A stretch of DNA of 64,000 nucleotides, from NCBI GenBank assembly GCA_000091205.1, contig AP006488.2; one strand, written 5' to 3'. Positions 1-64,000 of this stretch are shown here, one piece after another (within the stretch, counting starts at the first letter, position 1; every line of letters begins with the position of its first letter). The stretch comes from Cyanidioschyzon merolae. Its lineage: Eukaryota. Below the pieces are notes generated by a model. The model did not search any database, was not told where the DNA came from, and saw only the letters and a list, made by a program, of their open reading frames with translations. Position numbers and translations under genes: made by a program.

Positions 1-546
1 CAGGAAATCATTTATGAGTTTGAAAAGTACACCGGGTTAGCGCAGCAGGAGTACGACGACCAAACTGCACCCGGGAAAGATACAGACATATGCCAGGCGT
101 GGTTAGAGAACCGCTGCGAACGGGGCGACCTCTGCCAGTACCGCCACTCTAGAAGCAAGTCACTGATTGTCTGCAAACACTGGTTACGTGGACTATGCAA
201 AAAAGGTATAGAGTGCGAGTTTGTTCACCGTTTTGAGCTTGACAAGATGCCAGAGTGTTTCTTTTTCAGTCGCTACGGCGAGTGCACCAACGACGAGTGC
301 ATGTACCGCCACGTTGTTGCCGACTCCCGACGTATGGAGTGTCCTTTCTATGCCCGTGGTTTCTGCAAACATGGACCGCGGTGTCGTTACAAGCACGTGC
401 AGAAAGTAGCGTGTGCGAATTATTTGGGCGGTTTTTGTCCCAAGGGACCAGCGTGTCGCTTTGGACACGCCAAGTTTGAGATCGACCTGCAACAGGTGCT
501 GCACGAGGCGGAACGATTCGGTGATCGCAGTGTTTCCTGGCGCTAG
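1..546 (+). CDS. CPSF30/CPSF4-like CCCH zinc-finger protein (5'-partial; ORF enters window in frame 1, stop at 544-546)
   Basis: Frame-1 translation from nt 1 is open. It has five tandem C-x7-8-C-x5-C-x3-H fingers (e.g. CKHWLRGLCKKGIECEFVH, CFFFSRYGECTNDECMYRH, CPFYARGFCKHGPRCRYKH, CANYLGGFCPKGPACRFGH). Spacing and count are typical of the 30-kDa cleavage/polyadenylation factor. Confidence 0.7.
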   Translation, partial: QEIIYEFEKYTGLAQQEYDDQTAPGKDTDICQAWLENRCERGDLCQYRHSRSKSLIVCKHWLRGLCKKGIECEFVHRFELDKMPECFFFSRYGECTNDECMYRHVVADSRRMECPFYARGFCKHGPRCRYKHVQKVACANYLGGFCPKGPACRFGHAKFEIDLQQVLHEAERFGDRSVSWR

Positions 547-573
547 GCAGAAAAGTGCCGGGCGTGTGCGCAC

Positions 574-3036
574 TTACCGGTTCGTGTCGTCGGGGAGGTT
601 TTGGCGGCTCTTGTCGCCAGCACCGCCACCAGCACCAGTGCTGCCGCCTGGTGTCTCTGCAGCAGCGCCCATGCTGGGGCTCAGCGAGGTTGCGTTCATG
701 CCGCGCGGGGCACTCTTCCGCTCAGAACTGAGACCTGCGGCAGCTGCGGCTCGAGCGTCCGCAACCCCCAGACAAGTGCGCGCTACATTGTCCATCAAAC
801 GATGGAGTTCCGGAGCAAGCTGGATAAAGTCACTCTGCCAGAAGCCGTACTCGGGATTCCGTACCAGTTCGAGAAAGACCACGAGGAGGCCCCATGGATG
901 CGGTCTTGCTGCAAACAGGCGCTCAACAAGAACCCTGGCAATCAGTTCACGAATGCGAACGTGTCCGTGGCGAAACAGGTGCAGCAGCGACAGCGCAAAA
1001 AAGCTGGTATGCGCATTGGGGTAGCGAATCTGATTCGCCATCGCGCAAATGAGCAGGAAACGACCCTCGTCATCAAGCTCTTCTGCAAAATGCAGAAAGA
1101 CTGGAATAAAGCTTTCCATTGCCCGGGCCTGCACAGCGTACTGACCCACGTAGAGCACAGCGGCGTTCACAAGCGGCACCACATACCTGCCAAGTGGATC
1201 GTCAGCCCGCAAGCGCGCGGACAAGTTCAACATGAATCCAGTCGGGGCGCCCTGCTGCAGATATTCATCGAGCACCGCACGGAGTTCGCTTCGTCCCAAT
1301 ACTGAAGCTGGATTGGCGCTCAGACGTGGCACCGTATGTATCTTGGTTGCGCTTTCGATGGTCACCTCGGGGGAGAACGGGTCCGGCAGCCGCAACTTGG
1401 ACGGAAACGCACTCAACACCAGGTTTCGTAGCTGCACGCAATGCAGCGGTATGTAATCACAGAGAACCGGCGCCGATTCCACCAAAAGCTCTGGGAAATC
1501 ATGGAGGACTACTAAAAGAAGCCGCAACACACCACGATAAAAGAGGCGCACCGCTGATCTCAATGGCTGACCCTTGGGAACGGCGTTCAGAAAGGGTTGC
1601 AGAAACTCCAGCGCATCCACGAGTAGACGCTGAAAGGCAGGCCAACCGGCCCGTTGCCTACTCAGAAGCATCCTTGGCATTAGCAGCGGACACGAGACCA
1701 GTTCTAGCCACGAAAAAGCGAAGACTGGTGCGACAGCCGGCCGGATGGCGTGCAGCGCAACGCCAAACAAGGACAAAATCTGCGGGCTCGACATGCTCAA
1801 GTCCGGCGTCGAGCTGGCCGGGCCTTCGCTGCCCGCGACTTCGTTGCTAGCAGGGCGGTCATCGTCGGAAGCGTCTTTCGAGTATCGTTCGCGGTCGGTA
1901 TCGTGCAGCGCCCGAGCCAAACTGCGCAAAAACCAGGCAGGAGGTCGTGGGTCCCCAGCATTCCGTAGCAACTGCTGTACTGCCTCCTGCAGCGCAGCCT
2001 GCAGCAGCACCATCCGCTCCGAAAGATCAAGGCCGGGCACTTCGCGAACAAGTGCAACAACGAGAAGCGCTGCCTCATCGACAGCGGATGGTAGCACTTG
2101 ATGTCCGGGTTCCAGCGCGTAAGCAACGACCGCCGGTACCAGCGCATCTAGCTGGAAACGACTCAGTAAAGGAAGCAGCTCACTCAAGGAACTGCCCGAA
2201 TTGCGGATATGCTGCCAGGCGTCCATGAGATGCGCGATTTGTTCCCGTTCGGAGGTATTGCTCACGGCACCTGCGGTGCCGCATTTCTGCATCATCAATG
2301 GGGACGCCTGGAGCGACGTCCCTGGAACAGGCACGCCAGCAAGCGGCGGTGCTGGAGGCAGCATACCAGCCGCACCCGCACCCGCACCCGCCATCTCCAT
2401 AGGCGCAAGCGACGGCGCTGCCGCTGCACTACTACCACCGCCACCAGCACCGCCACCAGCGTTGCTAATGCCTCCAGCATAGGCTGGCCCGGGTGTCTGC
2501 GGAGCTGCTGCATCCAGCAGCCGCGAGTGCAGCACGTCAAAACCGCCCCGCTGCAGTGCGTGCAGGATATCGGGTGTGAGCTCGACGCCAACGCCCAGTG
2601 GATGATCCGCGTCCACGTTCGTGTTGTTGCCCTTCGCGCTCAGGGCTGCACACCAGGAAGCTACATCCGCATGGATTCGTGGCGCCGGATCGCTGAGTAG
2701 TTTGAGCAAAACAACGTGCGTTTCTACAAGGAGACGCACGCGCGCGTCAAGCAGCCACCGAAACACTTTCATCGCCAGCGATACACACAGCCGCTCCATA
2801 TCGCCAAACCGTCGCACCAGCGCAGCGATTTGCTGAAGAACGCGTTTCGTGCCGCCAGCCGCCGAGAGCGTCATCTCCGGATTGGCTTGCAGCTCCGCGT
2901 TCGCCACATTCATCAGCAGCGCGTAGGCCTGCATGAAGCGCTCTTCAGCGCTCACCATGCGCATCAGGGCATCAGGCGATTCCGTGAGGCCCCCCGGAGT
3001 CGACACCGCAGACGCTACTGCTGCTGGCGGTGGTGG

Positions 3037-3075
<39 letters not shown>

Positions 3076-6000
3076 GCCACTGGGGAAGCGCTGCGCAGCT
3101 GCTGGTCCGGCGCCTGTTGCATCTGTCGTCGCAACCGCTATGGGTATCGCCGAAGAGGTCACTGCAGTCGCCACTCCGCCAACACCCATTGGAGCGCTCG
3201 TCGATTGCCCCGCTACAGAGAGCGGCGCTACCGATGGAGGAGCAGAAGCAAACGCCGACGGATACCCAGTGGTCTTCACCACGTGATTCTCCATCGCTCC
3301 ATAATTCCACAGTGCCGTTGCCCGCATAGAGAATGCCTCATAGACGCTAGCCGGTGGTTGCAACAGCGGTATCGGCGGTTGTTGCATCACAGACACGAGT
3401 GACGGAGGCAGCTGCGGCATCCGCCGATGCGAACTCATTGCTGCAACCAGCATGTTGGCATCCAGCTCGCGTGTCGCCCGCTCCGCTGCAGCACGTTCAA
3501 TAATCGCACAAGCGGTATCCAGATTCTCCGCGACAATGCCCTGCACTGCTTGTTCGACGATCGTCTGATCACCACCGATATTAGAAAAAACTGATCTTAA
3601 ATGCCCTATCATGGAAATACGCAAGGGATCCTTGCACGTGATGTGCGCCAGGCCGCTGGCTAACGCCTGTGCCATGCGCTGCCCAGCCATGAGCGCTAGC
3701 TCTCCATCTGCTTGACTAAAGTCCTTGGCGACGAGCTCCCGTGTTGTTACCAGGGCGATGAGTGCGGAACGCTCGGTCACTGGTTGAATAAATTCGCGGA
3801 TTGCTCGATCAATAGCAACTGCTACAATTCTCTTGAGTACAGATGGATTCTGGAACAACTCGGGGTGTTCATTCACACTGATGTACTGGGAGAGGTTGGG
3901 AATCACGGTCACGCCGTCGGCAATCGCTGCGGTTTGTGCTGCAAGCTGGGCAGCTCTTGCAGCCGCCAGCGGAGGCGCCGTGGTCGCCAAGTGCAACGAG
4001 GAGCGCAGTGCGCCCAGATCGAAACTCGAACGATCGTCGGAGCGGTCGGCTCGTGTTGCGCTCGCGAGTGCTCCAGCCGGCGTCGAGGCTAGAGCTGCTG
4101 TTGCTGCACCTGCACCTGCACCTGCACCTGCTGCTGCTGTTGCTGCACCAGGCGGCCGTTCCGTACCGGTTGTCGCCAAGCCCGGTGTTGCCGCTGTCGG
4201 TAACGTCGATGGTGTCGCGCTGTGCGGCGTGAGCATCTCTCGACGTGAACTCGGACTCGCCAAGAGGTCGCTACCCTCTTTGAATGTGAAATCGGGGTTC
4301 TCACGACCCACGGGGCGGCTGCGAGAAGCGAGCAGGTGCGTGGGTTTCACGCTGTGGAGATCGATCTCCACGTTCTTGCACAGCACCTCGACCTCGAACT
4401 TCAAATTCAGTTTCAGATCGGAAAGCTCGTAGATCTCGCGAAGCAGTCCAAAGATGGCGGCGATCCAGGGGTTCGGCAAGCGGAAGATGCGCGACACTCG
4501 ACATGCGTCCAGTATCTTGCAAACAAATGGGATAACGGCAATGAGCAGCCCGGTGGTGTACGCCTGCAAGATAAGCGCTTTGAGGTCCAGATCGCGGCGA
4601 AGAATAGGTCGATTCCGAGCCAGCGTGAGCGAACCGATCCACATCCCGATGTTTTTGAGCACAGAGCGCTCCGCGGTACTGTAGCGGATCTTTTCCGAGT
4701 TCAGCAGAATGCGCACATTATCGTACGATTTGCGGAGAACCAGTGGTATCAGATGGGGTGCATGCTCCAGGAACATGACGTAGGTAGCCTGGAAGTTTGG
4801 CTCGATGGATGCGCGCTTCACCACAATGTACTGTGCAAGATAATCCCAGTACTCCTCGTGAACAATCTCGAAACATTCGCGCACCTTGCTGTCCATGTTC
4901 TCCGGAGAGAGGTTATTGAAAATAAAGTGCACCTTATCCTGAATTGATGTATCAGGAACGCTCATAGGTCGCTGCTCATCGCGCGATGCCCGCAGCAGTA
5001 CCTCTAAGGTGGTCGGTGTCGAGAGACCGAATGCAGCTACGGCACTCGAGGGTGACGCTGATGTCGAAGCACGCTCCGCAGCACCCATAATGTTTTTGTG
5101 CATATCCTGCATTCCTGCGCCGGCTACTGTTTCACCGCGAACTCTTGGGGAAGCACGCTCGGCGCTGGCGCTCGTCGACTTGGCGTCAGCGCCTGTGCTG
5201 AGCTCAACTGCCACTGGTTTCTTCGCGCCGCTGCGGAAAGCATCGGATTCATCTGGTGCCTCTCCGTGGAATGCCTCGTGGCCTTCGGCGCCCTCTACGA
5301 TCGCCAAGACCGATTGGAAAAACTCAGGAGCTGTTTGGCGCAGGTGTGGCATCTGAACGATGTATCTGGCGTATTGGGGCCACTCCGCAAGGCGATGCTG
5401 AAAAGTTCCCAGCGCCATGAGACCAAACTGGAACATCTTATTCGGCGGCGACTTTCGCAGTGATTCCAAAAGATACCGCATGATCAGCGTGAACATCAGG
5501 GAGTGTGGAACCACGATCTCATTTTTGATGAGCGCACCAAAAAGTTCCGCTGTTATGCGGAGCTCTCGATCCGGGTACCGACTGAAAAACCGATACTCAT
5601 CGAGCAGATTGTGAATGATGCAGCGCACCAGCATATCATCCGATTCGGTGTGTGAATTTTGAAGCTCCTGGAGCTCAGTTATCGCTTGCGCTATGGACGT
5701 TTTCTCCGCATAGATGCGTTGGAAAAACTGATTCGCTCGCTCCTCGATCTCTGGTGGAAAAGCATCCTGGCTATCTCCCTCTTTTGCCGAAGTTCGACAA
5801 AGCTGATCGAGCTCTTCGCGCATGCGCTCGTCCACGAGGCCGACGTTCTCTGTCAACACCTTGAGCATCGTAGCCGTAGCCTCAAGCGAAAAGAGCGCAG
5901 CTGCATCTCCCTGTGCCGCCCGCTCGCTCAGATAATTGAGGCATGCCCCAAAAAACTCTGATCCGTGATCATGGAGACGATCGCGTAGCCACTTGCGGAG

Positions 6001-9484: not shown

Positions 9485-9900
9485 ACTCACAGGTCCCTCC
9501 TGGCCTTTGTCGACGAGCCATCTGCCATTGGCTTCAGCTTTTTCTTGTACACTATGAGTCTGAGAGGCTGCGCTACGAAGTTCGCTTGCCTCATCTCCGC
9601 GGTTGTCGTCGTCAGCACCGCGCATCGTCTGGTATTGATTGCGGCATTGACGTATCGATTCTGGAACTCCCTGCGTGCATTGCAGTCGGCTGGACGCACC
9701 AGTCCAAAGATTACTAAAACTGGTCCACTCAGTGTCGATTTCTTCCCGCCATCGTCCCGTCGGTCGTAAACATTTTTGTCGTCCAATTCCCAGTTTCTTC
9801 TTCTTCCTCGTTACTTGCACTTCTCCATTCTTTGATATGGAAAAAGAGGATTTCTTTCGTGTTTTTCCGGCAGTCGGTGACATCGGCCCTCCGGGAACCT
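9485..9900 (-). mobile_element. Truncated Fanzor/TnpB-like element fragment (3' part with RuvC-III motif), copy C
   Basis: The minus-strand ORF 9487..9786 encodes …NRYVNAAINTRRCAVL…ANFVAQPLRLIVYKKKLKP. It is collinear with the C-terminus of the 34499..35365 ORF (NRDFNAAINVRRCAVL…VNFVGQPLKVELYEKKLEA). Nucleotide homology to copies A and B ends abruptly at ~9485. Confidence 0.55.
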
Positions 9901-10177
9901 CGATTCCCTTATCCGCAATGTTCTTTATTTTTTATTTCTGAAAAAGAGCGTAATTTGAACGCGTCTGCTATAAACCGCGAAAACACGTTTCATGACACGC
10001 ACCTGGCGATTGAACCCAACTGAGGTAAAAGACGATGCTTTGCGGTGGCGTCAACGTCGATACCTCTCGTACGTTAGAGCTTCATGCAAATGATAAGAAA
10101 CGTGTTTCCCTTCAACGCCAAGACGCATATCGTGTTTCATGCCTTCCAGATGTGGAGCTGCACGTATCTGTCGCGCT

Positions 10178-10900
10178 ACAGAAAAGGAACAGAAACGACC
10201 CATTAACTAGCATCTGGATAAAATTTCATTTCCCTCGCTATGGTAACCGTTGAACGAGAGAAAATCTTTCCATATTGCCGAGAGTTCAGCTTACAGGCAA
10301 AGGGTCCTGCGAGCCGAACGAGTCTCCCAGGCTCGTGGTTCATGTCCCTCTCTCTCAGTGGCAGGTGCTTCAATGCGATCTGAGCAACTCGTCTGCAACG
10401 CAATTCATTCTGGGACTGGGAGCGGGTATGCTCCGTCTAGGTGTCGCCCTGCTTTGCGGGAGTGTCCTAGCACACCGCTTCGCGCTGTCGCAGGAAGTAG
10501 GTCCGTTAGCGCAGCTTGCAGGCTCCCGGAATTATTATATACGCCATTCCCGTGTTACGCGAACCACGCCTCGAGCCGACGTCCGCTGTCGTATGGCAAC
10601 GCCGTTCTATCTGCGTGCTGCATCAGTACCAGAGGTGGGAGCGCAATGCCGGATGTTCACGGCGTGCATTCGGCGCACAATAGAACGTCTGAAGCGACCA
10701 GTATATATCCGGGAACAGGTCATGGAACTTGGAGGTAGGGTGCAGCATGATACACGCTTTGCTGAAAGCCATTATCCATCTTGCAGTCTGGGATCCATGG
10801 TCCATGGAAACGTTTCGTCATCGAAGAAAACGGCGCCGCCAGCGACGCTTCCGAACGAAGCACCCATAACGTTCCTCAATTTTCCAATAAAGTCCATAAA
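10178..10900 (+). repeat. ~730-bp interspersed repeat 'R', copy 1 (non-coding; paired with copy at 31983-32720)
   Basis: Collinear 65-75% nucleotide identity with 31983-32720. Shared blocks include gaaaaggaacagaaacgacc…aactagca, attctgggact, ggtgtcgccct, cgcttygcgctgtcgc, gtatggcaacgccgttct, gcagcatgat…gctttygctgaa, ggatccat. Confidence 0.6.
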
Positions 10901-14454: not shown

Positions 14455-16165
14455 ATTCAGAGTCACCTACCAGCCTTTTTTGACCGGCTGCCTGCAACCG
14501 GTTTCAGCTTCTTCTTGTACACTTCGAGTATGACTGGCTACCCTAGGAATTTGGATCGCGTCAGCACCTTGGGGCTCTTCCTCAGAACCGCACATCTTCT
14601 GATATTGACAGCGGCGTTCCAGTCTCGGTTCACGACCTCCATGCGTTAGGTGCCACTGACGGAACGCACCAGTGCAGGGGGTCGTCGATGTCGCACCCTT
14701 GGTGCCCTTCTCGCTCTGTCAGCGCTCCGTGCTTTTCTATTGCCGGAGCGCTCCACTGACTCTTCCCGACCGCGACTCTCTGAAGTGTACACCCCAGCGC
14801 ATCCTTTGGATTGTGATTTCTTCAAATGAACGCTCTTGTTTATGCCTCTAGGTAAGGTCCGTTTCTGGAGAAGACGGACTTGCGGAAGAAAGACGACATC
14901 CACCCGGGCGTGACACTGTGTGCTGAAAGCTTCAGCGATTCGCCCAGTGGAGCGATCATCAGCTTGCAGGATAGAAAAGGCTCCTTCGATTCTGTTCAGC
15001 CACGGAGCGTACGGAGGAATGGAACGCAGCTCGAATCCGCGGCAGCATCGGCCAAAGCTCGAACGTATGCGACGTGGAGGAATACCACGTTCTCCCATAG
15101 AGGGATGCTACCAGGCGTCAGGGACAAAGGTCTTCAACAATTCGATAAAGTTGTTGCTGTAGTAGGAGCCTTCCCTACGAGCGAAACTGAGCACGCTACT
15201 GGAATCCGCTTCAGTTAGAACAGATGATGATATCCTCGTTCTCTTCGAATTCGATCGTTCATACAACGTGCGCCCTGCGCTGCGGATACCTGTAGATGCT
15301 CCGATCGTTTCGGCCGAAGCAAGTCTCATGGACTGAAACAACAACAAACCAGTACTACTCTGCTTCATACAGATCGCGACGCTCTAGAGACACTGCCGTT
15401 GCGACTTTGGTGCAAGATGGCCATGCATGAAATCGGACGGTTTGGCGACTGAATCGCTGTGTTTTCAGGACCACACAAACGAGATGTTGATAAGCAGCGA
15501 CGCCCATGGTGGCTTCTACCGTCGCTCCAGCTTCCCCTGAAATGATCAATCGGTCGTTTTCTACCATAGATCCGAAGCACGCTTTAAGAATGTCTTTTTT
15601 TAGCGCGGAGCGCATCCACTTGTTTGTCACTGTGTTCCCCAACCATCTGCGTACTGTGGCATGACTGACCAGAAAGAGGAACGCAGTCCTCGTTCTACTG
15701 TTCCGTACTAAATGCGTATCCAACGGGCAACTCGTCTACGATTGATTCAGTACATGGCATCCGGAATTCGATCTCCTGCTATATACCACATCTGAGGGTG
15801 AATCAAGATTGACTTGGGAGACTATGTTCATCGAACGAGTGCTGCAGAGCGTATCCATCGCTTGAACCGGTATTAGAGTTCGAATTTTTTGGAGATGTTT
15901 GTCTGATTGGATACGGCATCTCGGGTAGTTTCTAAAACCGGTTTATCGCTGCAGGTAATTCCAAAGTTTGGTACCTGTAATGCAGTTTCCTTCTCGTTGC
16001 GCGATGATTCCAGAGCGTAGGGCGCGGTGCATCGACCCCGTGAACCGCACGGTACGCCAACACTGTCCCGTTTCCGGATGACGCTCGATGCAGAATGCTT
16101 TCCTGCCCGGCACACGTACTGATCGAGCCTGCACTGGTCGGCAGAGCATCGGAATGGGGCTCATC
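14455..16165 (-). mobile_element. Degenerate Fanzor/TnpB-like element, copy B (pseudogenised; multiple short ORFs)
   Basis: The reverse complement of 14600-14640 encodes VVNRDWNAAVNI (RuvC-III). Region 14460-14620 has ~70% nucleotide identity to 9490-9650. The minus ORF 15355..15723 has …ENDRLIISGEAGATVEATMG…, collinear with the RuvC-I segment NDFVVGADPGSTNIITIA of copy A (catalytic D->E). The region is broken into 4+ ORFs by frameshifts and stops. Confidence 0.5.
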
Positions 16166-25694: not shown

Positions 25695-28600
25695 AGGACT
25701 TGAGTGGAAGTACGCTTTAGGTCCGATCGTAAATTTCCTATTGCGCCTTGTTCTAATGTAAGTGACACAAAGGACTTGAGAAGAGGTACGGTTTAGGTCT
25801 GATCGGAGATATCCCGTGGCAGACTTGCCTTCGACAATATCCTGGAACGCATCGTGCGACGAGCGCCATACCGCGCACTACGATGTTCGCAGAGCAGTGG
25901 ACCCTGGAACGCATGTACCAGTACTTCTTGATTCGGCTTTCTGTCTCGCTGGTATACGAGAAAAGGGAGTGTCATTCGCAGATCGAAGAAAGGTCGCGGA
26001 AAGACTTGATGGTACAACTGCGGCCTTGCGAAAGAAACACAGGCAAACTTCAAGTTACCAATTCAACGTTCAGCAGGTAGATAAGCAATGCTTATCGTAG
26101 CAGCTATTCGGCAAGAAAAGCAACCAAACGGGAATGCCCCGAACATTATCCGCATGACTGTTTCCTCGTCGATCCATGGTTGGCGGCACATTCCCTGCGA
26201 AAAACTGCACGAGAGGCAATAGGATATGGAGTTTCCGTATCTTAGATACGAACAAATATGAAGACGCACGGAGGGTAAAGGAAATAACGTGCGTCCAGAT
26301 TGGTTTCATACTAACTTGCAAACGCTCAGAAAAAGAGCGATGCTTGTTCATCTCACTCGTTGAGCCTGCATTCGAAGGAAATGCTAGACATGTCCATGGG
26401 AACTCAAGTAGCGGCAAACATGTGTTTCTAAATAAAAGACAAGCGACAGTGAAGACTGCATCAGTCCTAGCGTCAATGGGATCATATGGTTGCCTCTATA
26501 TCGCCACACGGATCGGAATGTTCAACAAATTATGCTTCTTCATCGGAGCATTTCTTGGCTTCTTCTTTGCACAGCTTTCTCACCTGATCTCTGATAAGAT
26601 GGTGTTTTATCGCGCCAAAGCAGTCGTGGAGCATGCAGCTGCTACTGATATTGAGCTGCTCTTCATGCCAGCCTATTCTATCCAGTTCAGTCGAGTCAAA
26701 AGCGTGTTCTCTGTTGTCGAACGCCATCATTTCGCGCAGAGATCAATGGACTGGTCGTTTGAATCCGTGACACCTTTATTCGACATGTCGACCTCTGTTG
26801 TCATTAACCCTTAAATGCTCCGTTGTGTCTTTGCTCATGCACCAAAGAGAGTGCGATGCAACCGTGCTGCCCGTGGGCGTACTCGCGGCCGAGAAGGCAA
26901 TGGGAATGTACTTGAGGCATCATTGGTACGTTCTAGAAATGACGAGTTTGTTTTCGAGTTTCCTCCCGGAGCTTCTTCATCCCGAAGGAGGCACCGAATA
27001 TGGACTATACCGTGCACAACAATGCAATGCAGCTATGAAAATAAGAAGACGAAGAAAAGCATGAAATTTCAGAGGAAATGACGAACAGGAATCGGAACGA
27101 ATACCTATCGCAATGGAAAGAACCGTTTGAATCCGTGTTCACGGCCACGGCACAATGACATATCGACGACAAGAATCTTTCAGACTGAGAGCTATGCGAC
27201 ACCATCCAGGTTTGCGCAGCTTCCCTCGCCTTGATGCACGTCATCGAGCAACTTTTCACAAGAGATTACGACGCGTGACTGCCACCTGTCCACATTCTAC
27301 CGGAATTCTAGGATCGTACTTTCGTACGAGTACGCAAACGATGCTCGGGGCAGAAGCTGTAGTACAGCCTGACCGTAGGATCAGGGATTCGTAGACACGC
27401 TTCCCAGAGTACGAGTTCTTGCCGCCGCGCCACGTCAGTTAATCTCGCTTCTACAGCTCGGTGCCAAAAAGTAGCAAACGAACCTAAAAAACCACGGGCT
27501 GGTCAATTTCGAGCGCCTCATGAGTCGCACCCCGTGCGCATTCGAGTTTCATCTTACCTACCCAGAAAAGTCGACGTTGATGGAAGAAATTCATGGGGCG
27601 AAGATCATGGCGATTGATCAGCGAAATGGTCCAAGAGCAGAGGATGGTACATAGCTCTGGTGAGGTGTCCCAACGAGAGCAAGAGTCGCTTCAGAGCGTC
27701 CAGGCTAACCCTGTTGCGCTTCGTCTTGGGCCGTCGGGCGTTGTATCCTGTAAATAAGTGAAACGTAACGCATGTCTTGCTTGCATCAAGCGCTGCGACG
27801 TCATTCTGAACAGATCCCACCGGAGCACGGCAGACATACTACCCGAATCCGAGTACGCTCGCCTCCTCAAGGTTCTGTCCGAACATGTCCCAGCAGGTGA
27901 GACTGAGACCCATCGCATTGCAGCAGATATGTCTATCGTATACGATATGGTCTTGTCGTGATCTTCGGCGCGTATCTGCATGCAGATATGAAGCAGTGAA
28001 CCAGCACTGCGAAGGGCATTGGCGAAGCTCATGCAACGACTCGCGTTTACAGGCAGAAATTGGAAAGAGGCTGACATTGCAATGGAACCCCACCGAGTAT
28101 CCATCCGCATGCACTTTGCCAAACCGAGGCCTGAGTCGAGCATCGAGATTCGTTGTCAGCCGTAAAAGGTAGATGAAGAGAAAGGCTTCACGGCGGACGT
28201 GGATCTCGGGTTGAAGGCCATCATGGTCGTCGCCGTACCTCTGGATCAAGAGGACAGCACCGATGGCCGCAGCGGTAAGCAGAGGAAGCTGCTCAAAATC
28301 ATCCAGGGCTCTATTGGATCCAGTGTCGGGCACAGTGGACGCCAGCAGGCGAGCCACCAGGTGAAATGGTGGTGTCAGGACGCCTCGCGACGCTCTGACT
28401 ACGCGATCGATCCCAGCTGGATATGTTGTGTGCTTCCAACTCAGAGCGTACATGAGCGTCCAAATAACGAGCGCCGATGATCTTCAGCGGATGTCCATGA
28501 GATCGTCCAGCGTTCGCCAACGGTTTCTATTGTCAAGCGGCATACATCTGCCATCTTGTTCCGTTCGCTGGAAAAATGGCATGTGGGACATGTCGTGTAG

Positions 28601-29449
28601 TATCACGGGAATCTGTTTCGTTGGATGAGCTGTTGCACACAAAGGCTGCATTGCCGCTCCTTCGACGAGTGCGTACGCTAACTGCATGAATCGATTCTCT
28701 CGCAGGCCCATCGATGTGTGCGGGACGCCATACCCACATATAATGGGTACGAGAATGCCCGTTGAAACTTTTAGAGACTATGTGCATAAAACCGAGTCGA
28801 GTGCACGAGATCATGGTCTATGGACAGCGTACCATACGTCAGATGGCAAGGCAATGGAAAGCGAGAAGCGCGCTATCGTATGATTCCATCACCGGCAAGA
28901 ATACGCGCAAGCACACACTGCACCGAGTCCCGGAAAAAACGTCGATCAACATCCGGACACTTTGCCTAGTTCAGGAGCATCCAGCGCTTACGTGTCGAGA
29001 AATGCGTCTCGAAAGAATCGTTCAGAAGTTTGTATAGGCATTTTACTGAAACGCTGGTGACTTGCGGTGGTATTCAAATCAGTTGCCCCGACAAAGCGGA
29101 CTGGATTCCAACCCAGAACTGGGAGCTGAAACGGCACCGTTCAACTGCCCAGTGAGAGAATGAGAGCAGAGCGCCGCATACTCACATCGAGAACGATTCT
29201 CGCAGGCAACCGATAGACGATCATGGGGTTCCACCATTCGATATTCCTGCGTATGTCACGGACTCGTCATTCCGAGGCTGGTTCGTGCCCCAGCTCTGCC
29301 GTTCGGTACCTGGATACCTGGGTCAGGCAGCACGACCCAAACATTGCTGGGTACCGACCACGAAACGTTGCTTTACGCCAGGAGAGTCGCAGTCGCGATG
29401 TTCCTCGCGAAAACGCCCCGCCATACACACACAAACTGCGGATCGTGGC

Positions 29450-31777: not shown

Positions 31778-31982
31778 GACCTCCAGAACGTCTCAAACTA
31801 CGCACTGTTTACCAGGTAGGGTCAAACGCCCCCACGATCAGGCCCGAAAGACTCTGCCTAAGCGCTCGTGTTCGGCTCTGCGCTCTCCCGAACGTCGAGC
31901 GAATGACCTGTTGCGTAACTGCTGCCGCGGCGGCGGCAGCAGAGGCGAATGATGAGACCCAGCGCTTACCGAGTGCGCACTA

Positions 31983-32720
31983 TAGGAAAAGGAACAGAAA
32001 CGAACCTCTAACTAGCAAAGAGATCACATTTTCTTTCCTTCTCTATGATAAACATTAAAAGGGGGAACATGTTTTCGATATTTTAGAACGTTTACGTTAT
32101 CGGCGGTAGGTTCCGCGAGCCGGACAAGACTGTCTGGGCTAGTGTATCACGCTCGTCCCGGTGGCGGGTGCTGTAGTGCGGTCTGAGCTGCAACTCGTCC
32201 AAACTGCAGTTTATTCTGGGACTTGATAGATTAGATCTCTTCCGGGTGTCGCCCTCGTTGCGGTGGACTCCACGTATATCGCTTTGCGCTGTCGCGTGCA
32301 GTGGGTTTGTCTGCGGAGCTTGCTGGCTCCGAGAATGATCATATACTCCGACTCTGTGTCAGGTGAAGCATTCCTCGATCCGACGCCCTCAGTAGTATGG
32401 CAACGCCGTTCTGTCTCTGTTATGCATCGGCATCAGCGGATTAGAGGGTAAGGCGGGTGCATCAACGCATGCACCCGACGAATGACAGGAAGCACGAGAC
32501 GAGTAGTACATCCGAAAGGAAGTATACGTAATGGAATCTGGAGTTAGAATGCAGCATGATGGATGCTTTCGCTGAATCCGATACCCATGCATAGCGCAAC
32601 CTCGGATCCATTGTCAATGTGAGTGTTTTTCCATCGGAAAAATGAAGCACGTAGCTCTATCGTACAAATTGTAACGATGTTCAAGTCGTAGAAAAGTACA
32701 TTGTTTGTCCTCAATTGTGT
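31983..32720 (+). repeat. ~730-bp interspersed repeat 'R', copy 2, directly 5' of the Fanzor-like copy A
   Basis: See copy 1 (10178-10900). The same order of conserved blocks ends at the start of the Fanzor-like N-terminal ORFs. Confidence 0.6.
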
Positions 32721-33743
32721 TTCAACCTTCACACTAATGTATTCAAGTGCTTTTTCGCGCGTAATAGCTGTCCCATCCAAAGCGGTTTCGGTTTTTATAT
32801 TGAAAAAGGAAAGTTACGGAAGGGGAATTGGAGGATCCTGGGCGCCAGTGTCGCCGGCAGCCCGAAAAAACGAAGAACAGTGCCAAGTCCAAAGGAACAA
32901 GAGAAGAAGAAGAAGAAGAAGAAGTAAAAGCGGGAGGCCCTACGTCAAAGGCTACACAAAAGACGACGGTACGACGAGATGGCGGTGAAAGCCTGTCTTC
33001 TTCAACATACCAAGGATCCGTACAGGGAAAACGTTCGAGAGGCAATCTGGAACCGTGTCGAGCCGAACTCAAGCGGTGTCCGTGACGCTTCCCAAGGAAT
33101 GGCGCATTTCCTAAGGGAATGGTATCACGACGTTACGGACACCAAAACAGTCGAGGTTCTGGAAGAAATTTTCAACAAAACCTTTATTCATCACCGGATG
33201 CTTGGCACCGGGGAAACGTCTAGGTGAAATGAGCGAGTTCATGCCCTCCACAAAATTTACGCCGAATTCCGCTTCGACGGTACTCGATACAGGGGGGGAT
33301 TCGAATATTTACACCTACGGGGCGATGAAGTACCTCACCAGTCTAAAGAACCATTTAACAATGAACCCCAAAAACTTCGATCGCCAGCATGAAAAGGAGA
33401 TCGAATTCATCGACGAGACGACATCACTCAGGGGCATGAACGAGGATTCCGTCATCCGTACGGTTATACAAGAGCATCGTGCTGTCTTGGGACTGGCGAA
33501 TCCAGCAGAAAAGATATCAGAGTGGAAAGAAGATAAGGAACGATACTATCGCCTCATCCTACGGTATTTCGTGTTTTTTGGCCGAGAACTCGAACGCAAG
33601 GCAGAGATGAAGCTGAGTGGGGAAAAAATGAAGAATGGGAGAGACGAAAGGCTGCGCTTCTGGGTAAGAGCTTAAACATCGTTCCGTTGTGAAACATCAA
33701 GTCACATTTTAAGACTATCGACTGCAGAGTCCTTCATGACATC

Positions 33744-34502
33744 ATGAAGGAGATCTGTCCGGAGTTCGATGAACGGAAGACAGAGTTCACCGCTGAAAAC
33801 CGGGAGACGTACTTGAAGAGTATCCTCAATTTCAAACGTCTCAAAGTAAGCAAGAAAAAGAAATTCACTGGGATGATCGAAACCGATGGAGTATCTATAT
33901 GTGTACACGATCGGCGGTTGAAGGTGGATCGTCCAGTCCTGCCTTCAGCCTCGCCCGTGACGAAGCATGAAGGTGAGAAGGAGGCGGATCCTGCGATGCA
34001 GGAGTTGGAGGATAACGACCTTGGCGTTGACGTGGCGAAGCATGAAGAAAAGGAGAAGGCTGTTCCTGTGACTCAGGAGATAGAGCATAACGACCTTGTC
34101 GTTGACGTGACGAAGGATGAAGAAAAGAAAGAGGCGGATCCTGTGATGCAGGAGATGGAGGGGAACGACCTTGTCGTAGGCGCGGCGAATCATGAAGATG
34201 AGAAGGAAGCGAATCCTACCACGCAGAAAGCGCATGAGAACGACTTTGTAGTTGGCGCGGACCCCGGAAGCACAAATATCATAACCATCGCTGCTCCCAA
34301 GCTCGCGGAAGATGGTATTGACGGGAACTTGCGTCAGAAATATATGCGTCTTCTGCGGCTCTCGAGAGCGAGATACTATCGACAATCGGGAATCATGAAT
34401 GCGAGGAAGAAAATCGTTACGTGGAATGTAGGAATGAAAGAGCACCTGGAAGCTCTGAGTGAGGTGACGAGCCGAGGAGCGGACTTTCGAGCTTTTCGGT
34501 GA
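33744..34502 (+). pseudogene. Fanzor/TnpB-like nuclease, middle segment with RuvC-I motif and 25-aa tandem duplications
   Basis: GADPGSTNIITIAAPK is preceded by four 25-aa acidic repeats (…KHEGEKEADPAMQELEDNDLGVDVA / KHEEKEKAVPVTQEIEHNDLVVDVT / …). It ends in a stop that is frame-shifted relative to the next segment. Confidence 0.5.
33956..34255. repeat. 75-bp tandem repeat x4 inside the Fanzor-like ORF
   Basis: The period is 75 (cgtgacgaagcatgaag… at 33956, 34031, 34106, 34181). It encodes 25-aa repeats ending in NDLVV/NDFVV. Confidence 0.85.
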
Positions 34503-35365
34503 TTCATGGAAGTTCGCGTTGCGCATTGGGATGCGCTATGGGAGGAGTATACCAAGCCCCGGTGGGCTCGTCTGCGTATGAATCGATACGGTGGGAAGCA
34601 GCGGGCGTTCGCGAATTTTTCAATCAGCCGAGCGCCTTGAAGGAGGATCAAAGTCAGAGGCTCGTAGTAGCGTATGGGGCACGGAGCTGGAAGACCAAAA
34701 AAGGGTGTACGCCAGCTCCAACGACAAGGGTGTACAAGGAGTGCGCACGGCGTTTCGTTACAATACCTGTAGATGAGTTTCGAACATTGTATACACACCA
34801 TGAACTGGGTTGTACACTTCAGCGAGTGGAGATGGAAAAGTGCCACAGGAGCCCTGAGGAAATAGCAAAATACGGACCGTTGACGGAGGAGCAAATGGAA
34901 AGGAGGGTGAACGTTCGTGGATTACTTGCACTAGTAAGTACAACCAGTGATGGCAAGAAACGTATGGAGTTTGTGAATCGTGACTTTAATGCCGCAATCA
35001 ATGTACGGAGATGTGCGGTGCTGGAGAATAGACTTCCAGAGTCGACAAGAGTGAACTTTGTTGGACAACCTCTCAAAGTCGAATTATATGAGAAAAAGTT
35101 GGAAGCAGTCGTAGGTGGCCGGTCGAGAAACGGCGGGAAGGCGTCTGCACATCAGCTGGACACGTTATGTCTAGGGCGCGGTTTTCCCGCCACTACGGTA
35201 CACTGTCGGCGACGTCGTTCGACTTTCGAACGGCGTTTGGAGGCGCGGCTTTGGCGGGAAACGCTTGGTGGGCGCTATCTGCTCCAAACGCTCTGTGTTC
35301 AACGTCATACGGTTTACGTTTTGACGCTTCATGGATTGGCACGCGGCTCCAGTTTACTATACTGA
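34499..35365 (+). pseudogene. Fanzor/TnpB-like nuclease, C-terminal segment (Cys-rich region + RuvC-III D-x-NAAINV)
   Basis: GTG-initiated ORF in a different frame from the upstream segment. It has the NRDFNAAINVRRCAVLEN motif. The tail after ~35160 is read-through into the MCM5 5' region. Confidence 0.5.
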
Positions 35366-55150: not shown

Positions 55151-57730
55151 GGATTTACGATTGTGTCTGCGGACAAGCGCTTTCGACGCGTTGCTGCTGG
55201 CAGCGTTGACCTGGTCGGCATCAACATGCTTGGCGACACCCTCGAACAAGCGCTGGTAAAACTTCCGAACGCATGATCCAAGTGAATGCGTACATGGCTT
55301 TGCGGCGCTCTGTTCCTTCGATATACGGTCCTGGAATCAGGTATTCTTCCAGTTTTCGATTATTCCGTTTCACGAGGACTCGTGAGGTACAGGTATTCGC
55401 GACGCGGGATGGACGAGGAAACATATTCAGCATGGTCTTTTGAGCGCTATTTCACGAGCTTGTTCAGAAATCTTCTCGACATTCCCTTTTTGCATCAGCG
55501 ATCCAGTTTGGGAGAATTTCGTGCGTCTCTCTGTGGTGATCGATGAAACCGCATTTCACATGAGCAGCTGGATATCTCTAAAAGGATACGAGCCCAGAGA
55601 TTTCCGTGGCTTTTGATTGTGCGGAAACGGGTCCTGGGTACGGGCTTGAATCATCCCAGCGATCATATTAAGTGACGCGTCCGATACGATTTGCATAAAG
55701 GACGCGGATACGGATGAACGAATTCCGACTTGCTTTCCAGTTCGACAGTTCTTTTCGAAAATTCTTCCATGATAGGTAGCATCTCGTTTTAAAATGCTGT
55801 ATTGAAGCGAATAGCATGCGGCTTCGCGTGCCTTGCAGAGAGCACTTTTCGAAAGGCTAGCCCCGAACAAGCTGGTGTTCGAGGGGTACAGCCCCAGGCG
55901 CTGCTCCTGGAGATTTCATCAAGGCGCGTCTTCTGTGGCCGTCATGGGCATCAGCCAAACGATGCAGCAAGCGTCCACGCGTCGTAGAGCATCCAATGGA
56001 GGTTAAGGATAGGTGAACACATCGGTATACCTGCATTCAGTCACGGGTTATCAATACGAGGCGTGCGCCGAACTTGTATACGTAGACGACGACATTGCCT
56101 GGGAAAACGCAGATCGCAACGAATGTCCTTTTCCCGTGATATGCATCGGCAATAGTTGAGAATTCCTAAAATCGACACGTGAATCTTTGCACCAACAGCT
56201 TCCGACTGCTCGTTACAGACCGAGATGAGAACTGGAGACCGCTGTATCTAAATTATGAGGTACGAGAGAAAAATGAAAAAGCTGAAGACAAAGAACGACA
56301 TGGATGATTTTGATCACTGCAGGAAGATGCTCAAACATCACTGTATCCGTATGAGCCAAGATGCGCTGTTCCCATTTCATTCTGAAGTCGGTTTAGCATT
56401 GCGGAGAGCGCATGAGACACGCTCTATATGTGGATGATCGCTCGATCAAGAGCAGGGTCTTTTATGAAAAACTTGCACCATCTTTGTGGAATACCTTTGC
56501 ACGCGAATTGTGCAGAGCATTTTGTTTTGCGTTCATCGGTATGATTCCGCTCTTCCTCGATGGAACACCATTTCAGAATATTCAGATCCTGAGCGCATGT
56601 CCGGAGATTTTATTATATTCTTCTGCAGACCAGAAGCTGTTGTACTTCAAAGGCTTTCGGAGAGATTCCGAACCCTTCAAACGAGCACGGGACGGCGCCG
56701 ACTGCCGTTCGTCTGCGAATACCCATGCAAAACGCAACCCGAGAAACGCGCCAACAACCTGCACGCGACGGAACCGCAGTTCGACGCCGCAGCGAACTGC
56801 ACCATCTCAAGGCAGTGCAGGCGAGCCCTGCTCTGAGCAAATCAAACCTGGAATCCCGAGCCGAAGCCCGCATTGGTATAGCAAAGCCGCTCTGTCTCCG
56901 GTTTGCATCCGCAGCGGCGCTATTGGTGCTACCGCAGACGCTCACGGCGGGCTCGTCGCACGATAGCGTGTAAAACATAACCACTGCATCCGAGCCAAGT
57001 ACATGGAGTCTAAATTGAATATAGGTGGAACAGTGGATGCTTTTCTAATCGCTGATATTCAGGGCCCAATCGGGGATGCCTGGTCCATGTAAACTGTCCG
57101 TCAAGCGAGGAATCCCACCGACAAGCCGCATAATAAGAGGCGACAATCGAGCTGCACTGCCACTGAACGTACGAAAGTGCGCTAAAAACTCCAGTGCGCA
57201 TGTCGTAGCCTTCAAAGCCGCTTGATGCGTCGATTCTGCGGGAATCCGCCGGGTCACCGCGCGCTTTCAGGACTCGGGACACGTATGACCCGTACCAGTC
57301 GATGGGTTGCTCATCAGCGCTCATCCACATCGGCCTAGAATAGACAAGTGTACCTTGACTACGCTCAGCACAACACGGCTTGCCTGAAAAAGTCAGAAGC
57401 GGCACTGGTCCTGGTACGTGCTCGCTGTGTGCTCTTGAGCGACCACCAGTCATGCAACTGCGCAAAGTATGCGTACGGAGCGCAGCGAATCCATTCAGCT
57501 TGTGCTGTAAACTAGATGCGTCCAGAGCTTCGCGCCACACGAAGCCTTTTCCGGGCCAAAACCAGCAACGATGCCATCTCGTGTTGCATGCGATAAACTG
57601 GGGCGTGCTGCTTCACAGCGCGTACAAATCGAGTTCGTGTATACGCCGGTCTACCTGCAAGCGAACAGCAGCTGACCAAGCACGCCCTACCCTGTGCCGT
57701 ACGGGATTCGCATTATTCGCAGGCATTCGG

Positions 57731-63350: not shown

Positions 63351-64000
63351 ATGCATATATACACATCAAATGCCCACAGATCGAGAAGCGGCACAGGGGC
63401 GCTGTTGGAAACCGAAGAGAGCGCCTACCCATGGGCTATAGAGCGTGGCGTGCGCGATGACATGCTGCCGGCCTGCGACGGCATGCTGGTTGAGTTTCAT
63501 TGACAAGGTGGAATGTAGGAAAGCAACATTATATCCGAGAGGACGTATGGGTCATGGAACTTGACGGTGGCGTCATGAATGATATGCGCTTTCTCGAATG
63601 TCGATGTTGATCGTGCAATTTAGGATTCTTCGTGTGTGCACACGTTCAGTTCAGTAAACGACAACATAGATCGTTGGTGCAAACTCATCTGTAGAAGCAG
63701 CGATGGCGACGATCTTCTTCATGATGCGCGTACGGCGTATGCGATTCGACGTCAGTGCATCCGCGTGAATATCAAATGGAACGGGGCGCGATCACAGGGG
63801 CTCGCAGACGAGTCTTTGGGCACGGTATGCTTCCAGCGTCAATCATAAAGGACTTTGGGGTTTGCTTTTCCGCTTTCATGTATCCGGTTTTCGATAGGCT
63901 GGCCTTTGTTATTCCACCGGTGCTGCGCTCAGTAGTTGTGGGATGATGATAGCAATATTCAAGTCAAGATTTGGTAGTTTTCTGTTGTTTCATGCGCATG

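Follow-up and report, generated by a model that had tools for sequence, protein, structure and literature searches.

The intergenic region between the Sec23 and MCM5 genes of Cyanidioschyzon merolae very probably carries, at 31962-35239 of the window (the whole 64,000-nucleotide stretch of contig AP006488.2 analysed here), a fixed and degenerate copy of CMe-1A, a C. merolae repeat family encoding a Fanzor1 protein. The two proteins flanking the element are identical to BAM79524.1 (Sec23) and BAM79525.1 (MCM5) of C. merolae 10D. Their genes are divergent, with 3.55 kb between the start codons, of which ~3.3 kb correspond to a repeat that carries no annotation in the C. merolae 10D reference. 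From its motifs, the initial annotation had recognised a TnpB/Fanzor-like element here, placed it at 32979-35160 and considered it worth characterising. The element actually extends over ~31962-35239, and the presence of CMe-1A in the C. merolae genome is already known, since the family was described in the 2013 paper that coined the name "Fanzor" (PMC3627910).

In that work, CMe-1A was defined as a Fanzor1 family of the C. merolae genome, with ~150 copies each ~80% identical to a 3,169-bp consensus that lacks terminal inverted repeats (TIRs) and encodes the CMe-1 Fanzor1 protein of 734 aa (Bao & Jurka 2013, Mobile DNA 4:12; PMC3627910). The first 635 bp of CMe-1A correspond to a separate element, TE-N2_CMe, which forms a family of its own with ~70 copies (PMC3627910). 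Our literature search on the characterisation of red-algal Fanzors returned nothing beyond the 2013 paper (PMC3627910). The window copy belongs to the same genome as the published family, is likewise devoid of TIRs, and when conceptually translated it parallels the 734-aa CMe-1 protein, consistent with the coding capacity of ~730 aa initially estimated. To our knowledge, no transposase, TIR or target-site duplication is known for CMe-1A.

Alignment of consensus positions 740-3169 with window positions 32651-35235 revealed 86% identity overall in a global alignment and 80-87% per segment by blastn. A homologue search with the core of the element recovered 256 homologues (best E=6e-138), a similarity far above chance. 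Three CMe-1A copies or fragments were counted in the 64-kb window. The two additional fragments noticed at the outset are real, and both lie on the minus strand. A further segment at 28641-28739, obtained by tblastn with E=3e-4, did not reappear when the DNA consensus was used and was not counted as a Fanzor fragment. The features of the locus are collected in Table 1.

Table 1. Coordinates of CMe-1A features in the window
Feature	Position	Strand	Remarks
Whole element, core and inverted 5' module	~31962-35239		
Inverted 5' module of CMe-1A	31962..32636	-	Consensus 1-663, equivalent to TE-N2_CMe; 78% identity
CMe-1A Fanzor1 core	32651..35239	+	Consensus 740 to 3169 plus ~4 nt; blastn, global alignment
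Degenerate Fanzor1 (CMe-1) reading frame	32816..35174	+	Former start codon 32816-32818 to TAG stop 35172-35174
Basic N-terminal stretch PKKRRTVPSP, then K-rich run	32862..32891	+	Consensus protein has GKKRKTVPSPEEQEKTKKQKRE
75-bp (25-aa) tandem repeat	33956..34260	+	Linker between WED strands and RuvC-I; TRF period 75, 3.5 copies
Motif FVVGADPGSTNIITIA	34245-34292	+	Contains GADPG
RuvC-I catalytic aspartate codon GAC in GADPG	34260..34262	+	Aligns to DP of SpuFz1 and PpFz1
Motif IPVDEFRTLYTHH	34763-34801	+	Contains VDEFRT
RuvC-II catalytic glutamate codon GAG in VDEFRT	34775..34777	+	Aligns to DEYKTS and DEFRTS of solved Fanzor1 proteins
Motif FVNRDFNAAINVRRC	34970-35014	+	Contains NRDFNAAINV
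RuvC-III catalytic aspartate codon GAC in NRDFNAAINV	34982..34984	+	Aligns to NRD of SpuFz1 and PpFz1
3' untranslated right end of element	35175..35239	+	65 nt, conserved among copies
Subterminal stem-loop ACGTCGTTCGA-CTT-TCGAACGGCGT	35212..35236	+	11-bp stem, ends ~3 nt from element boundary
Second CMe-1A copy, internally deleted	9496..10823	-	9855-10823 = consensus 1-967 (collinear); 9496-9676 = consensus 2897-3077
Third copy, 3' fragment spanning RuvC-III region	14466..14802	-	Consensus 2737-3077; 72% DNA identity; tblastn E=2e-18

The right boundary of the element was set by the family itself, as similarity among 72 copies stops ~4 nt past consensus position 3169. At the left, the Fanzor core is 5'-truncated by ~85 bp relative to the core common to the family, and it lies head-to-head with the inverted 5' module, 14 bp apart. 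Compared with the consensus, the window copy therefore lacks positions 664-739 and carries its 5' module in the opposite orientation. The same arrangement of inverted module and core was observed at the orthologous loci L001-L003. Whether this arrangement reflects a single CMe-1A copy with an inverted 5' module or two independent insertions, of TE-N2_CMe and of a 5'-truncated Fanzor core, is a question on which we put the second scenario close to an even chance. TE-N2_CMe is a separate family, many Fanzor cores begin at consensus 640-700 without TE-N2 while others have different 5' modules, and one locus (L076) displays a similar junction, in which a complete minus-strand CMe-1A and a plus-strand core meet at their positions 1 and 660, respectively. 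On the other hand, the inverted piece reaches consensus 663, slightly past the 635 bp of TE-N2, which at 78% identity is weak evidence, and a simple inversion of positions 1-700 with loss of 664-739 would yield the observed arrangement.

The 5' ends of the family have a modular make-up that varies from one subfamily to another. No TAM was obtained from the family 5' ends because of this heterogeneity. A second variable region is the 75-bp tandem repeat preceding RuvC-I, present in ~4 units in the window copy versus one in the consensus and in 1 to ~6 units among other copies. The three extra units of the window copy expand the linker in frame, and the corresponding 25-aa repeat region was disordered in the AlphaFold2 model described below (pLDDT<50).

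The right end of the element (35175..35239) is a candidate for the end of an omegaRNA scaffold, with a guide that would start at ~35240. Diversity among copies was 0.229 in the 3' untranslated region versus 0.28-0.31 in the 5' non-coding part. In the window copy, the right-end hairpin folds with a dG of -16.8 kcal/mol (z=-4.4); among copies, 41/56 fold at -6 kcal/mol or lower, and two sequence variants of the hairpin (TTCGA/TCGAA and TTTTC/GAAAG) each form stems of 10-11 bp. A search for an omegaRNA had been suggested at ~35000-35330, of which 35240-35330 belongs to the host and lies upstream of MCM5. The conserved 65-nt right end and its hairpin are present, but the RNA analyses gave neither an Rfam match nor significant covariation. 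Rfam at the gathering threshold and ARAGORN produced no match over the whole window. For the last 330 nt, RNAalifold with default scoring gave -0.7 kcal/mol and with RIBOSUM scoring a branched structure, without significant covariation. The pairs of the RIBOSUM structure were formed in 85.7% of cases versus 85.0% in shuffles, a signal of sequence conservation and not of covariation, and for this reason we claim no omegaRNA structure. Over the 3'-terminal part of the ORF, synonymous sites displayed no excess conservation.

By analogy with SpuFz1 and TnpB, a transcript covering the 3' part of the ORF together with the right end would serve as omegaRNA, taking its guide from the flanking DNA, and the CMe-1 ribonucleoprotein would cut matching TAM-adjacent DNA. 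Such cleavage would favour retention of the element or its spread through repair-mediated copying. RNA guidance, the location of the omegaRNA and the mobility mechanism of CMe-1A are what we infer from these better-known systems. A dead copy could in principle still act at the RNA level, its right end giving rise to an omegaRNA-like RNA loaded in trans by Fanzor from intact copies, with a guide derived from the 92 bp preceding MCM5. We consider this improbable for the window copy. Its right end and hairpin are intact, conservation is slightly higher in the 3' untranslated region than in the 5' non-coding part, and near-full-length relatives such as P0121 (752 aa) occur in environmental Cyanidioschyzon populations; orphan omegaRNA-bearing "ghost" loci have moreover been reported for SpuFz1 (PMC10432273). 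However, covariation gives the RNA structure no support, and the guide would be the element's own flank, so that the target would be the same locus or an empty allele, which is normal OMEGA logic and no new function.

At the protein level, the window copy is a pseudogene, unable to make protein. The lesions were called against the CMe-1A consensus and against relatives of collinear sequence, among them P0001, P0031 and P0121. First, the start codon is lost, ATG being replaced by ACG in the alignment to the consensus. Secondly, the frame contains four in-frame stops, namely CAA to TAA at ~32925, AGA to TGA at ~33225, TGC to TGA at ~33691 and GAA to TGA at 34500-34502. Thirdly, seven frameshifting indels were identified: 1-bp deletions at ~32841, ~32866, ~33619 and ~34616, 1-bp insertions at ~33292 and ~35127, and an 88-bp deletion at 33377/33378 that removes consensus 1450-1537. 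A 9-bp insertion is also present at ~32899. The stops, the frameshifts, the 88-bp deletion and the three extra 75-bp units distinguish the window copy from the consensus. Given its lost start, four stops, seven frameshifting indels and inverted 5' module, we regard it as a molecular fossil, and with 14% divergence from the consensus it is not young.

The four plus-strand ORFs from which the element was first recognised (32979..33227, 33202..33675, 33744..34502 and 34499..35365) are all present. The initial annotation had described their frame as broken at least three times and the copy as either spliced or a young pseudogene; the frame is indeed broken, but far more often, and of these two options the pseudogene holds while splicing and youth do not. 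An intact, intron-containing gene still expressed as a functional nuclease appears highly improbable. In its favour, the codons for the catalytic D, E and D residues have been retained, as have long ORF segments. Comparison with intact, collinear relatives shows, however, that the frame is disrupted by point-mutation stops and single-base indels and not by inserted segments; in addition, the start codon is ACG, coding sequence has been removed by the 88-bp deletion, and there is no additional sequence that might be an intron. C. merolae also possesses very few introns, which weighs further against splicing. Near the former N-terminus, the basic stretch and the K-rich run that follows look like a nuclear localisation signal and may have served as one.

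Membership of the element in the TnpB/Fanzor lineage, as a CMe-1A copy, is supported by the family match, by profile comparison and by structure. A deep profile built from 116 family members and searched against the PDB matched PpFz1 (9cf0, E=6.7e-26), SpuFz1 (8gkh, 4e-20) and GtFz1 (9cer, 3e-11) over ~500 residues, with the D, E and D motifs aligned. Less sensitive searches of the PDB, by phmmer with the core and then with a shallow 33-sequence profile, detected no Fanzor or TnpB match. The Pfam check initially suggested for OrfB_IS605 and OrfB_Zn_ribbon was similarly empty: neither the four window ORFs, scanned with Pfam and NCBIfam, nor single family members, scanned with Pfam, gave anything above threshold (best PF07282, E=0.23). 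The check by structural modelling was performed on the relative P0121 and not on the broken window copy. Its AlphaFold2 model (pLDDT 84.8, pTM 0.83), which replaced an unusable one from a 29-sequence alignment (pLDDT 53), retrieved SpuFz, PpFz and GtFz structures as all of its top seven Foldseek matches in the PDB (E 6.7e-16 to 1.1e-13), with target-normalised TM-scores of up to 0.73 for Fanzor1 structures and with Cas12, TnpB and Fanzor2 ranking below. A coincidental resemblance, the ORFs deriving from an unrelated repeat protein, would fit the absence of Pfam/NCBIfam matches and the empty single-sequence and shallow-profile PDB searches, but is refuted by the deep-profile matches to three solved Fanzor1 proteins (E=7e-26 to 3e-11, catalytic motifs aligned) and by the match of a confident structural model to Fanzor1 at E ~1e-15, leaving it a negligible probability.

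The GADPG, VDEFRT and NRDFNAAINV motifs are located where they had been reported, and the window copy has preserved all three codons of the catalytic triad (D, E, D). Across 116 relatives, the RuvC-I aspartate (D484 of P0121) is nearly invariant, its column being at least 90% conserved, the RuvC-II glutamate (E656) is invariant and the RuvC-III aspartate (D725) is nearly invariant. The TS motif that follows the RuvC-II glutamate is mutated to TL in the window copy. Among copies, codon-position diversity in the RuvC half was 0.08-0.15 at positions 1 and 2 versus 0.25-0.28 at position 3; the CMe-1 protein was under purifying selection while the family diversified.

No CCCC zinc finger was found between RuvC-II and RuvC-III in the true frame of the window copy. 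Part of the ORF 34499..35365 lies in the wrong frame, the true frame from 34503 to ~34616 reading FMEVRVAHWDALWEEYTKPRWARLRM, and the Cys-rich region SSRCALGCAMGG pointed out initially is an out-of-frame artefact, with no zinc ribbon. In the corresponding region, CMe-1 reads TSYTHHELGC...EKC...GLLALVSTT, the residues aligned to the four cysteines of SpuFz1 being H, L, L and one non-Cys, and the CMe-1 relatives examined keep at most one cysteine, in GLLWC. This CCCC zinc finger was called conserved between SpuFz1 and TnpB by Saito et al. and is part of the signature of Bao and Jurka, yet CMe-1 was classed as Fanzor1 by the latter (PMC3627910). In the clade members examined, the zinc finger of the NUC domain is gone and the D-E-D triad is kept under purifying selection.

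CMe-1, with ~734 aa encoded in a single ORF, combines a helical REC region and WED strands with a NUC/TNB region and a RuvC domain that bears the D-E-D triad, and nearly its entire length is homologous to the solved Fanzor1 RNA-guided DNA endonucleases. These are SpuFz1 (PDB 8GKH, 9CEU-9CEZ), PpFz1 from Parasitella parasitica (9CF0-3) and GtFz1 from Guillardia theta (9CER-T), with which CMe-1 is homologous across REC, WED, RuvC and NUC. The predicted fold is alike (Foldseek E ~1e-15, target-normalised TM ~0.72) although identity is only 13-15%. CMe-1 differs from them by the variable acidic 25-aa repeat linker before RuvC-I; the NUC-domain CCCC zinc finger, present in SpuFz1, is absent from CMe-1 and from the clade members examined, and the 30-nt inverted repeats of the Spu-1 elements of Spizellomyces punctatus have no counterpart in CMe-1A. 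With TnpB of ISDra2 (8H1J), CMe-1 has the RuvC core fold in common (Foldseek probability 1.00, 269 columns), but the resemblance is far less significant than that to Fanzor1 (E=0.011). TnpB/Cas12 and CMe-1 have their motifs in the common order D...E-x-x-TS...RD-x-NAA-x-N, and CMe-1A resembles IS200/IS605 elements in lacking TIRs and in its subterminal hairpin at the right end. In contrast, CMe-1 is about twice as long as bacterial TnpB (734 versus ~400 aa) and has a large helical REC, and CMe-1A has no TnpA partner, no zinc ribbon and a eukaryotic nuclear host. A bacterial TnpB or IS200/IS605 element was ruled out by the red-algal nuclear gene context, the absence of a Pfam match above threshold, the 734-aa protein and the structural distance of TnpB.

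At E≤1e-3, 3,364 cluster representatives were recovered, the majority ~600-700 aa long. C. merolae is a thermoacidophile growing at ~42 °C and pH 2. CMe-1 might stand for a large uncharacterised Fanzor1 clade; it would then be an RNA-guided nuclease of a thermoacidophile that functions without the zinc finger, with the hairpin right end as 3' scaffold of the omegaRNA and dead copies possibly supplying guides in trans, a picture that we consider possible but rather unlikely.

The discovery value of the locus is small, as the family, the genome and the homology to TnpB are published and the window copy is dead. The motif-based Fanzor call, made from sequence alone, was nevertheless sound. What is gained is a precise map of a single repeat that the C. 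merolae 10D reference leaves unannotated. For the mining of Fanzors toward genome-editing tools, the family may offer a zinc-finger-less clade, a conserved right-end hairpin and modular 5' ends.

To identify the element lying between Sec23 and MCM5, the consensus of CMe-1A, the repeat family of C. merolae taken from Additional file 2 of Bao & Jurka 2013 (PMC3627910), the paper in which Fanzor was named, was aligned to the window. Consensus positions 740-3169 correspond to window 32651-35235 (+) with 80-87% identity by segment (86% overall), and the consensus translation is collinear with the conceptual translation of this copy. By its published description, CMe-1A comprises about 150 copies that each share about 80% identity with a 3,169-bp consensus; it lacks TIRs, and its TSDs were not determinable. 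It encodes a 734-aa protein, CMe-1, and its 5′ 635 bp show 95% identity to TE-N2_CMe, an element in its own right (PMC3627910). The flanking Sec23 and MCM5 proteins are exact matches to BAM79524.1 / XP_005535810.1 and BAM79525.1 / XP_005535811.1 of strain 10D, so the window comes from the genome in which CMe-1A was defined. Judging by their consecutive accession numbers, no feature seems to be annotated between the two genes. The family and its occurrence in C. merolae are already published, and the window copy is a fossil. A search with the RuvC core revealed 256 relatives (60-76% identity), all in environmental assemblies and many fragmentary.

The ORFs listed in the initial annotation all exist, and its peptides were recovered by three-frame translation (Table). 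Pfam and NCBIfam scans of the four window ORFs as single sequences gave no match, so the quick test it suggested would have failed despite a correct call. Exhaustive HMMER searching with the CMe-1 family profile retrieved, from metagenomes and Logan assemblies, 3,364 cluster representatives (E<=1e-3), mostly of 600-700 aa; 451 of them matched at E<=1e-30. In a 116-sequence alignment, the glutamate of VDEF is invariant and the aspartates of DPG and RD nearly so. Searched against PDB sequences, the corresponding profile matched Fanzor1 proteins only (Parasitella, 6.7e-26; Spizellomyces, 4e-20; Guillardia, 3e-11) over about 500 residues, with the three catalytic motifs in register. From a shallow alignment AlphaFold gave a poor model (pLDDT 53); the second model, made from a deep alignment, was confident (pLDDT 84.8, pTM 0.83). 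Its top seven Foldseek matches in the PDB were Fanzor1 structures of S. punctatus, P. parasitica or G. theta (SpuFz, PpFz or GtFz; E 6.7e-16 to 1.1e-13; target-normalised TM up to 0.73), with Cas12 variants, ISDra2 TnpB and Fanzor2 ranking below. The absence of a profile match or of a RuvC-like fold had been named as grounds for abandoning the Fanzor assignment; both points were examined and both came out in its favour. By full-length sequence and fold homology, the CMe-1 clade belongs inside Fanzor1, the class given to CMe-1 by its original authors (PMC3627910).

Base-by-base alignment to the consensus revealed the lesions listed in the Table. The three catalytic codons are intact, with TL in place of TS after the catalytic glutamate. 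The frame breaks had been attributed to either splicing or a young pseudogene. Introns are ruled out: intact relatives are collinear with this copy at every lesion site, so the breaks are mutations. The copy is a pseudogene whose protein cannot be produced despite the surviving catalytic codons, and its insertion is old rather than young. The reported Cys-rich region is an out-of-frame translation of 34503-34616, where the correct frame gives FMEVRVAHWDALWEEYTKPRWARLRM. Just ahead of RuvC-I lies an acidic 25-aa repeat (consensus ~DVTKHEEKKEADPAMQEVEDNDLVV; window 33956-34260, residues 384-469 of the 752-aa relative P0121), present in 1 to about 6 units depending on the copy and predicted to be disordered.

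Table. Motifs, lesions and other repeats located in the window
Feature	Position	Strand	Method
FVVGADPGSTNIITIA motif	34245-34292		three-frame translation
IPVDEFRTLYTHH motif	34763-34801		three-frame translation
FVNRDFNAAINVRRC motif	34970-35014		three-frame translation
Start codon ATG to ACG	32816		consensus alignment
1-bp deletions	~32841 and ~32866		consensus alignment
9-bp insertion	~32899		consensus alignment
Stop, CAA to TAA	~32925		consensus alignment
Stop, AGA to TGA	~33225		consensus alignment
1-bp insertion	~33292		consensus alignment
88-bp deletion (consensus 1450-1537)	33377/33378		consensus alignment
1-bp deletion	~33619		consensus alignment
Stop, TGC to TGA	~33691		consensus alignment
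75-bp repeat, three extra in-frame units	33956-34260		TRF
Stop, GAA to TGA	34500		consensus alignment
1-bp deletion	~34616		consensus alignment
1-bp insertion	~35127		consensus alignment
Internally deleted CMe-1A copy	9855-10823 + 9496-9676	-	consensus alignment
CMe-1A family piece	14466-14802	-	consensus alignment
TE-N2-like fragments	56857-57094 and 63511-63626		consensus alignment

The element is larger than the 32979-35160 first proposed. Consensus 1-663 aligns to window 32636-31962 (-), so that a TE-N2-like module and the Fanzor core stand head-to-head; consensus 664-739 is absent. The same arrangement occurs in three environmental contigs with identical Sec23 (L001-L003), showing that the insertion is old and shared. 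The arrangement could reflect either an inversion of the 5′ module or two adjacent insertions. Among 80 further loci, some copies run 1-3169 and many begin at 640-700, groups of the latter sharing other, unrelated 5′ sequences; the family shares one core, and its 5′ modules are interchangeable. In the window, module position 1 abuts core position ~740; in a similar junction at locus L076 (1-2138 / 2162-4654), minus-strand CMe-1A position 1 abuts plus-strand core position 660. Cores adjoining either end of TE-N2 suggest a preferred insertion relationship of both elements. Copies without TE-N2 form at least two groups (L007, L011, L016, L022, L023, L058, L080 versus L028, L049, L064, L081) with their own unrelated sequences upstream of consensus ~655 (GGGTGTCGGACACGTGTCC... 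or TTTAAGATAGTTG...), so the core has joined at least three different 5′ modules. The shared core starts with GCGCT-N5-AGCGC or GCGCG-N7-CGCGC, both short palindromes.

Similarity among 72 copies ceases about 4 nt past consensus 3169, setting the right end at ~35239. The MCM5 ATG (35331) follows 92 bp downstream, and 185 bp separate the Sec23 ATG (31777) from the left edge at 31962. With so little non-repeat sequence left (35240-35330 and 31778-31961), both promoters must sit there or in the repeat ends.

Downstream of Sec23, in a low-GC patch (0.47), lies a 212-aa ORF (26176-26814, +) that is probably left over from a decayed transposase of Tc1/mariner type: its C-terminal part matches the DDE_3 transposase domain (PF13358; E=1.8e-6; 28.3 bits, below the 28.6 cut-off). 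A weak tblastn match at 28641-28739 (+; 33 aa, 45% identity, E=3e-4) to the LVVAYGA...KECARRF portion of the Fanzor ORF, not recovered by the DNA consensus search of the window, could be a chance similarity or a very ancient piece.

In the RuvC half, the copies differ less at codon positions 1 and 2 (nucleotide diversity 0.08-0.15) than at position 3 (0.25-0.28), indicating purifying selection on the protein during family diversification, in agreement with the intact ORFs kept by some old copies (PMC3627910). By homology with SpuFz1 (PMC10432273), the family's activity is most likely RNA-guided DNA cleavage, with a putative omegaRNA transcribed from the right end. There, the 65-nt 3′ UTR is somewhat more conserved (diversity 0.229) than 5′ non-coding sequence (0.28-0.31). 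At its end is a stem-loop, with a folding energy of -6 kcal/mol or lower for 41 of 56 copies (window copy: dG -16.8, z -4.4). Its terminal stem exists as two sequence variants, each giving 10-11 bp. RNAalifold and explicit pair counts revealed conservation without covariation, the Rfam search for an RNA family gave no match, and the 3′ end of the ORF bears no added synonymous constraint among copies.

The element has no zinc ribbon, and a CCCC zinc finger between RuvC-II and RuvC-III was found neither in CMe-1 nor in any relative inspected. This finger is part of the family signature of Bao & Jurka (PMC3627910) and was called conserved between SpuFz1 and TnpB by Saito et al. (PMC10432273); the CMe-1 clade lacks this defining family feature. 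All inspected relatives among P0143-P0290 carry VDEFRT...VRGLLWC.ST...KFVNRD.NAA.NI without the four zinc-finger cysteines. Follow-up may be merited only for the right-end hairpin and for this clade without a zinc finger.
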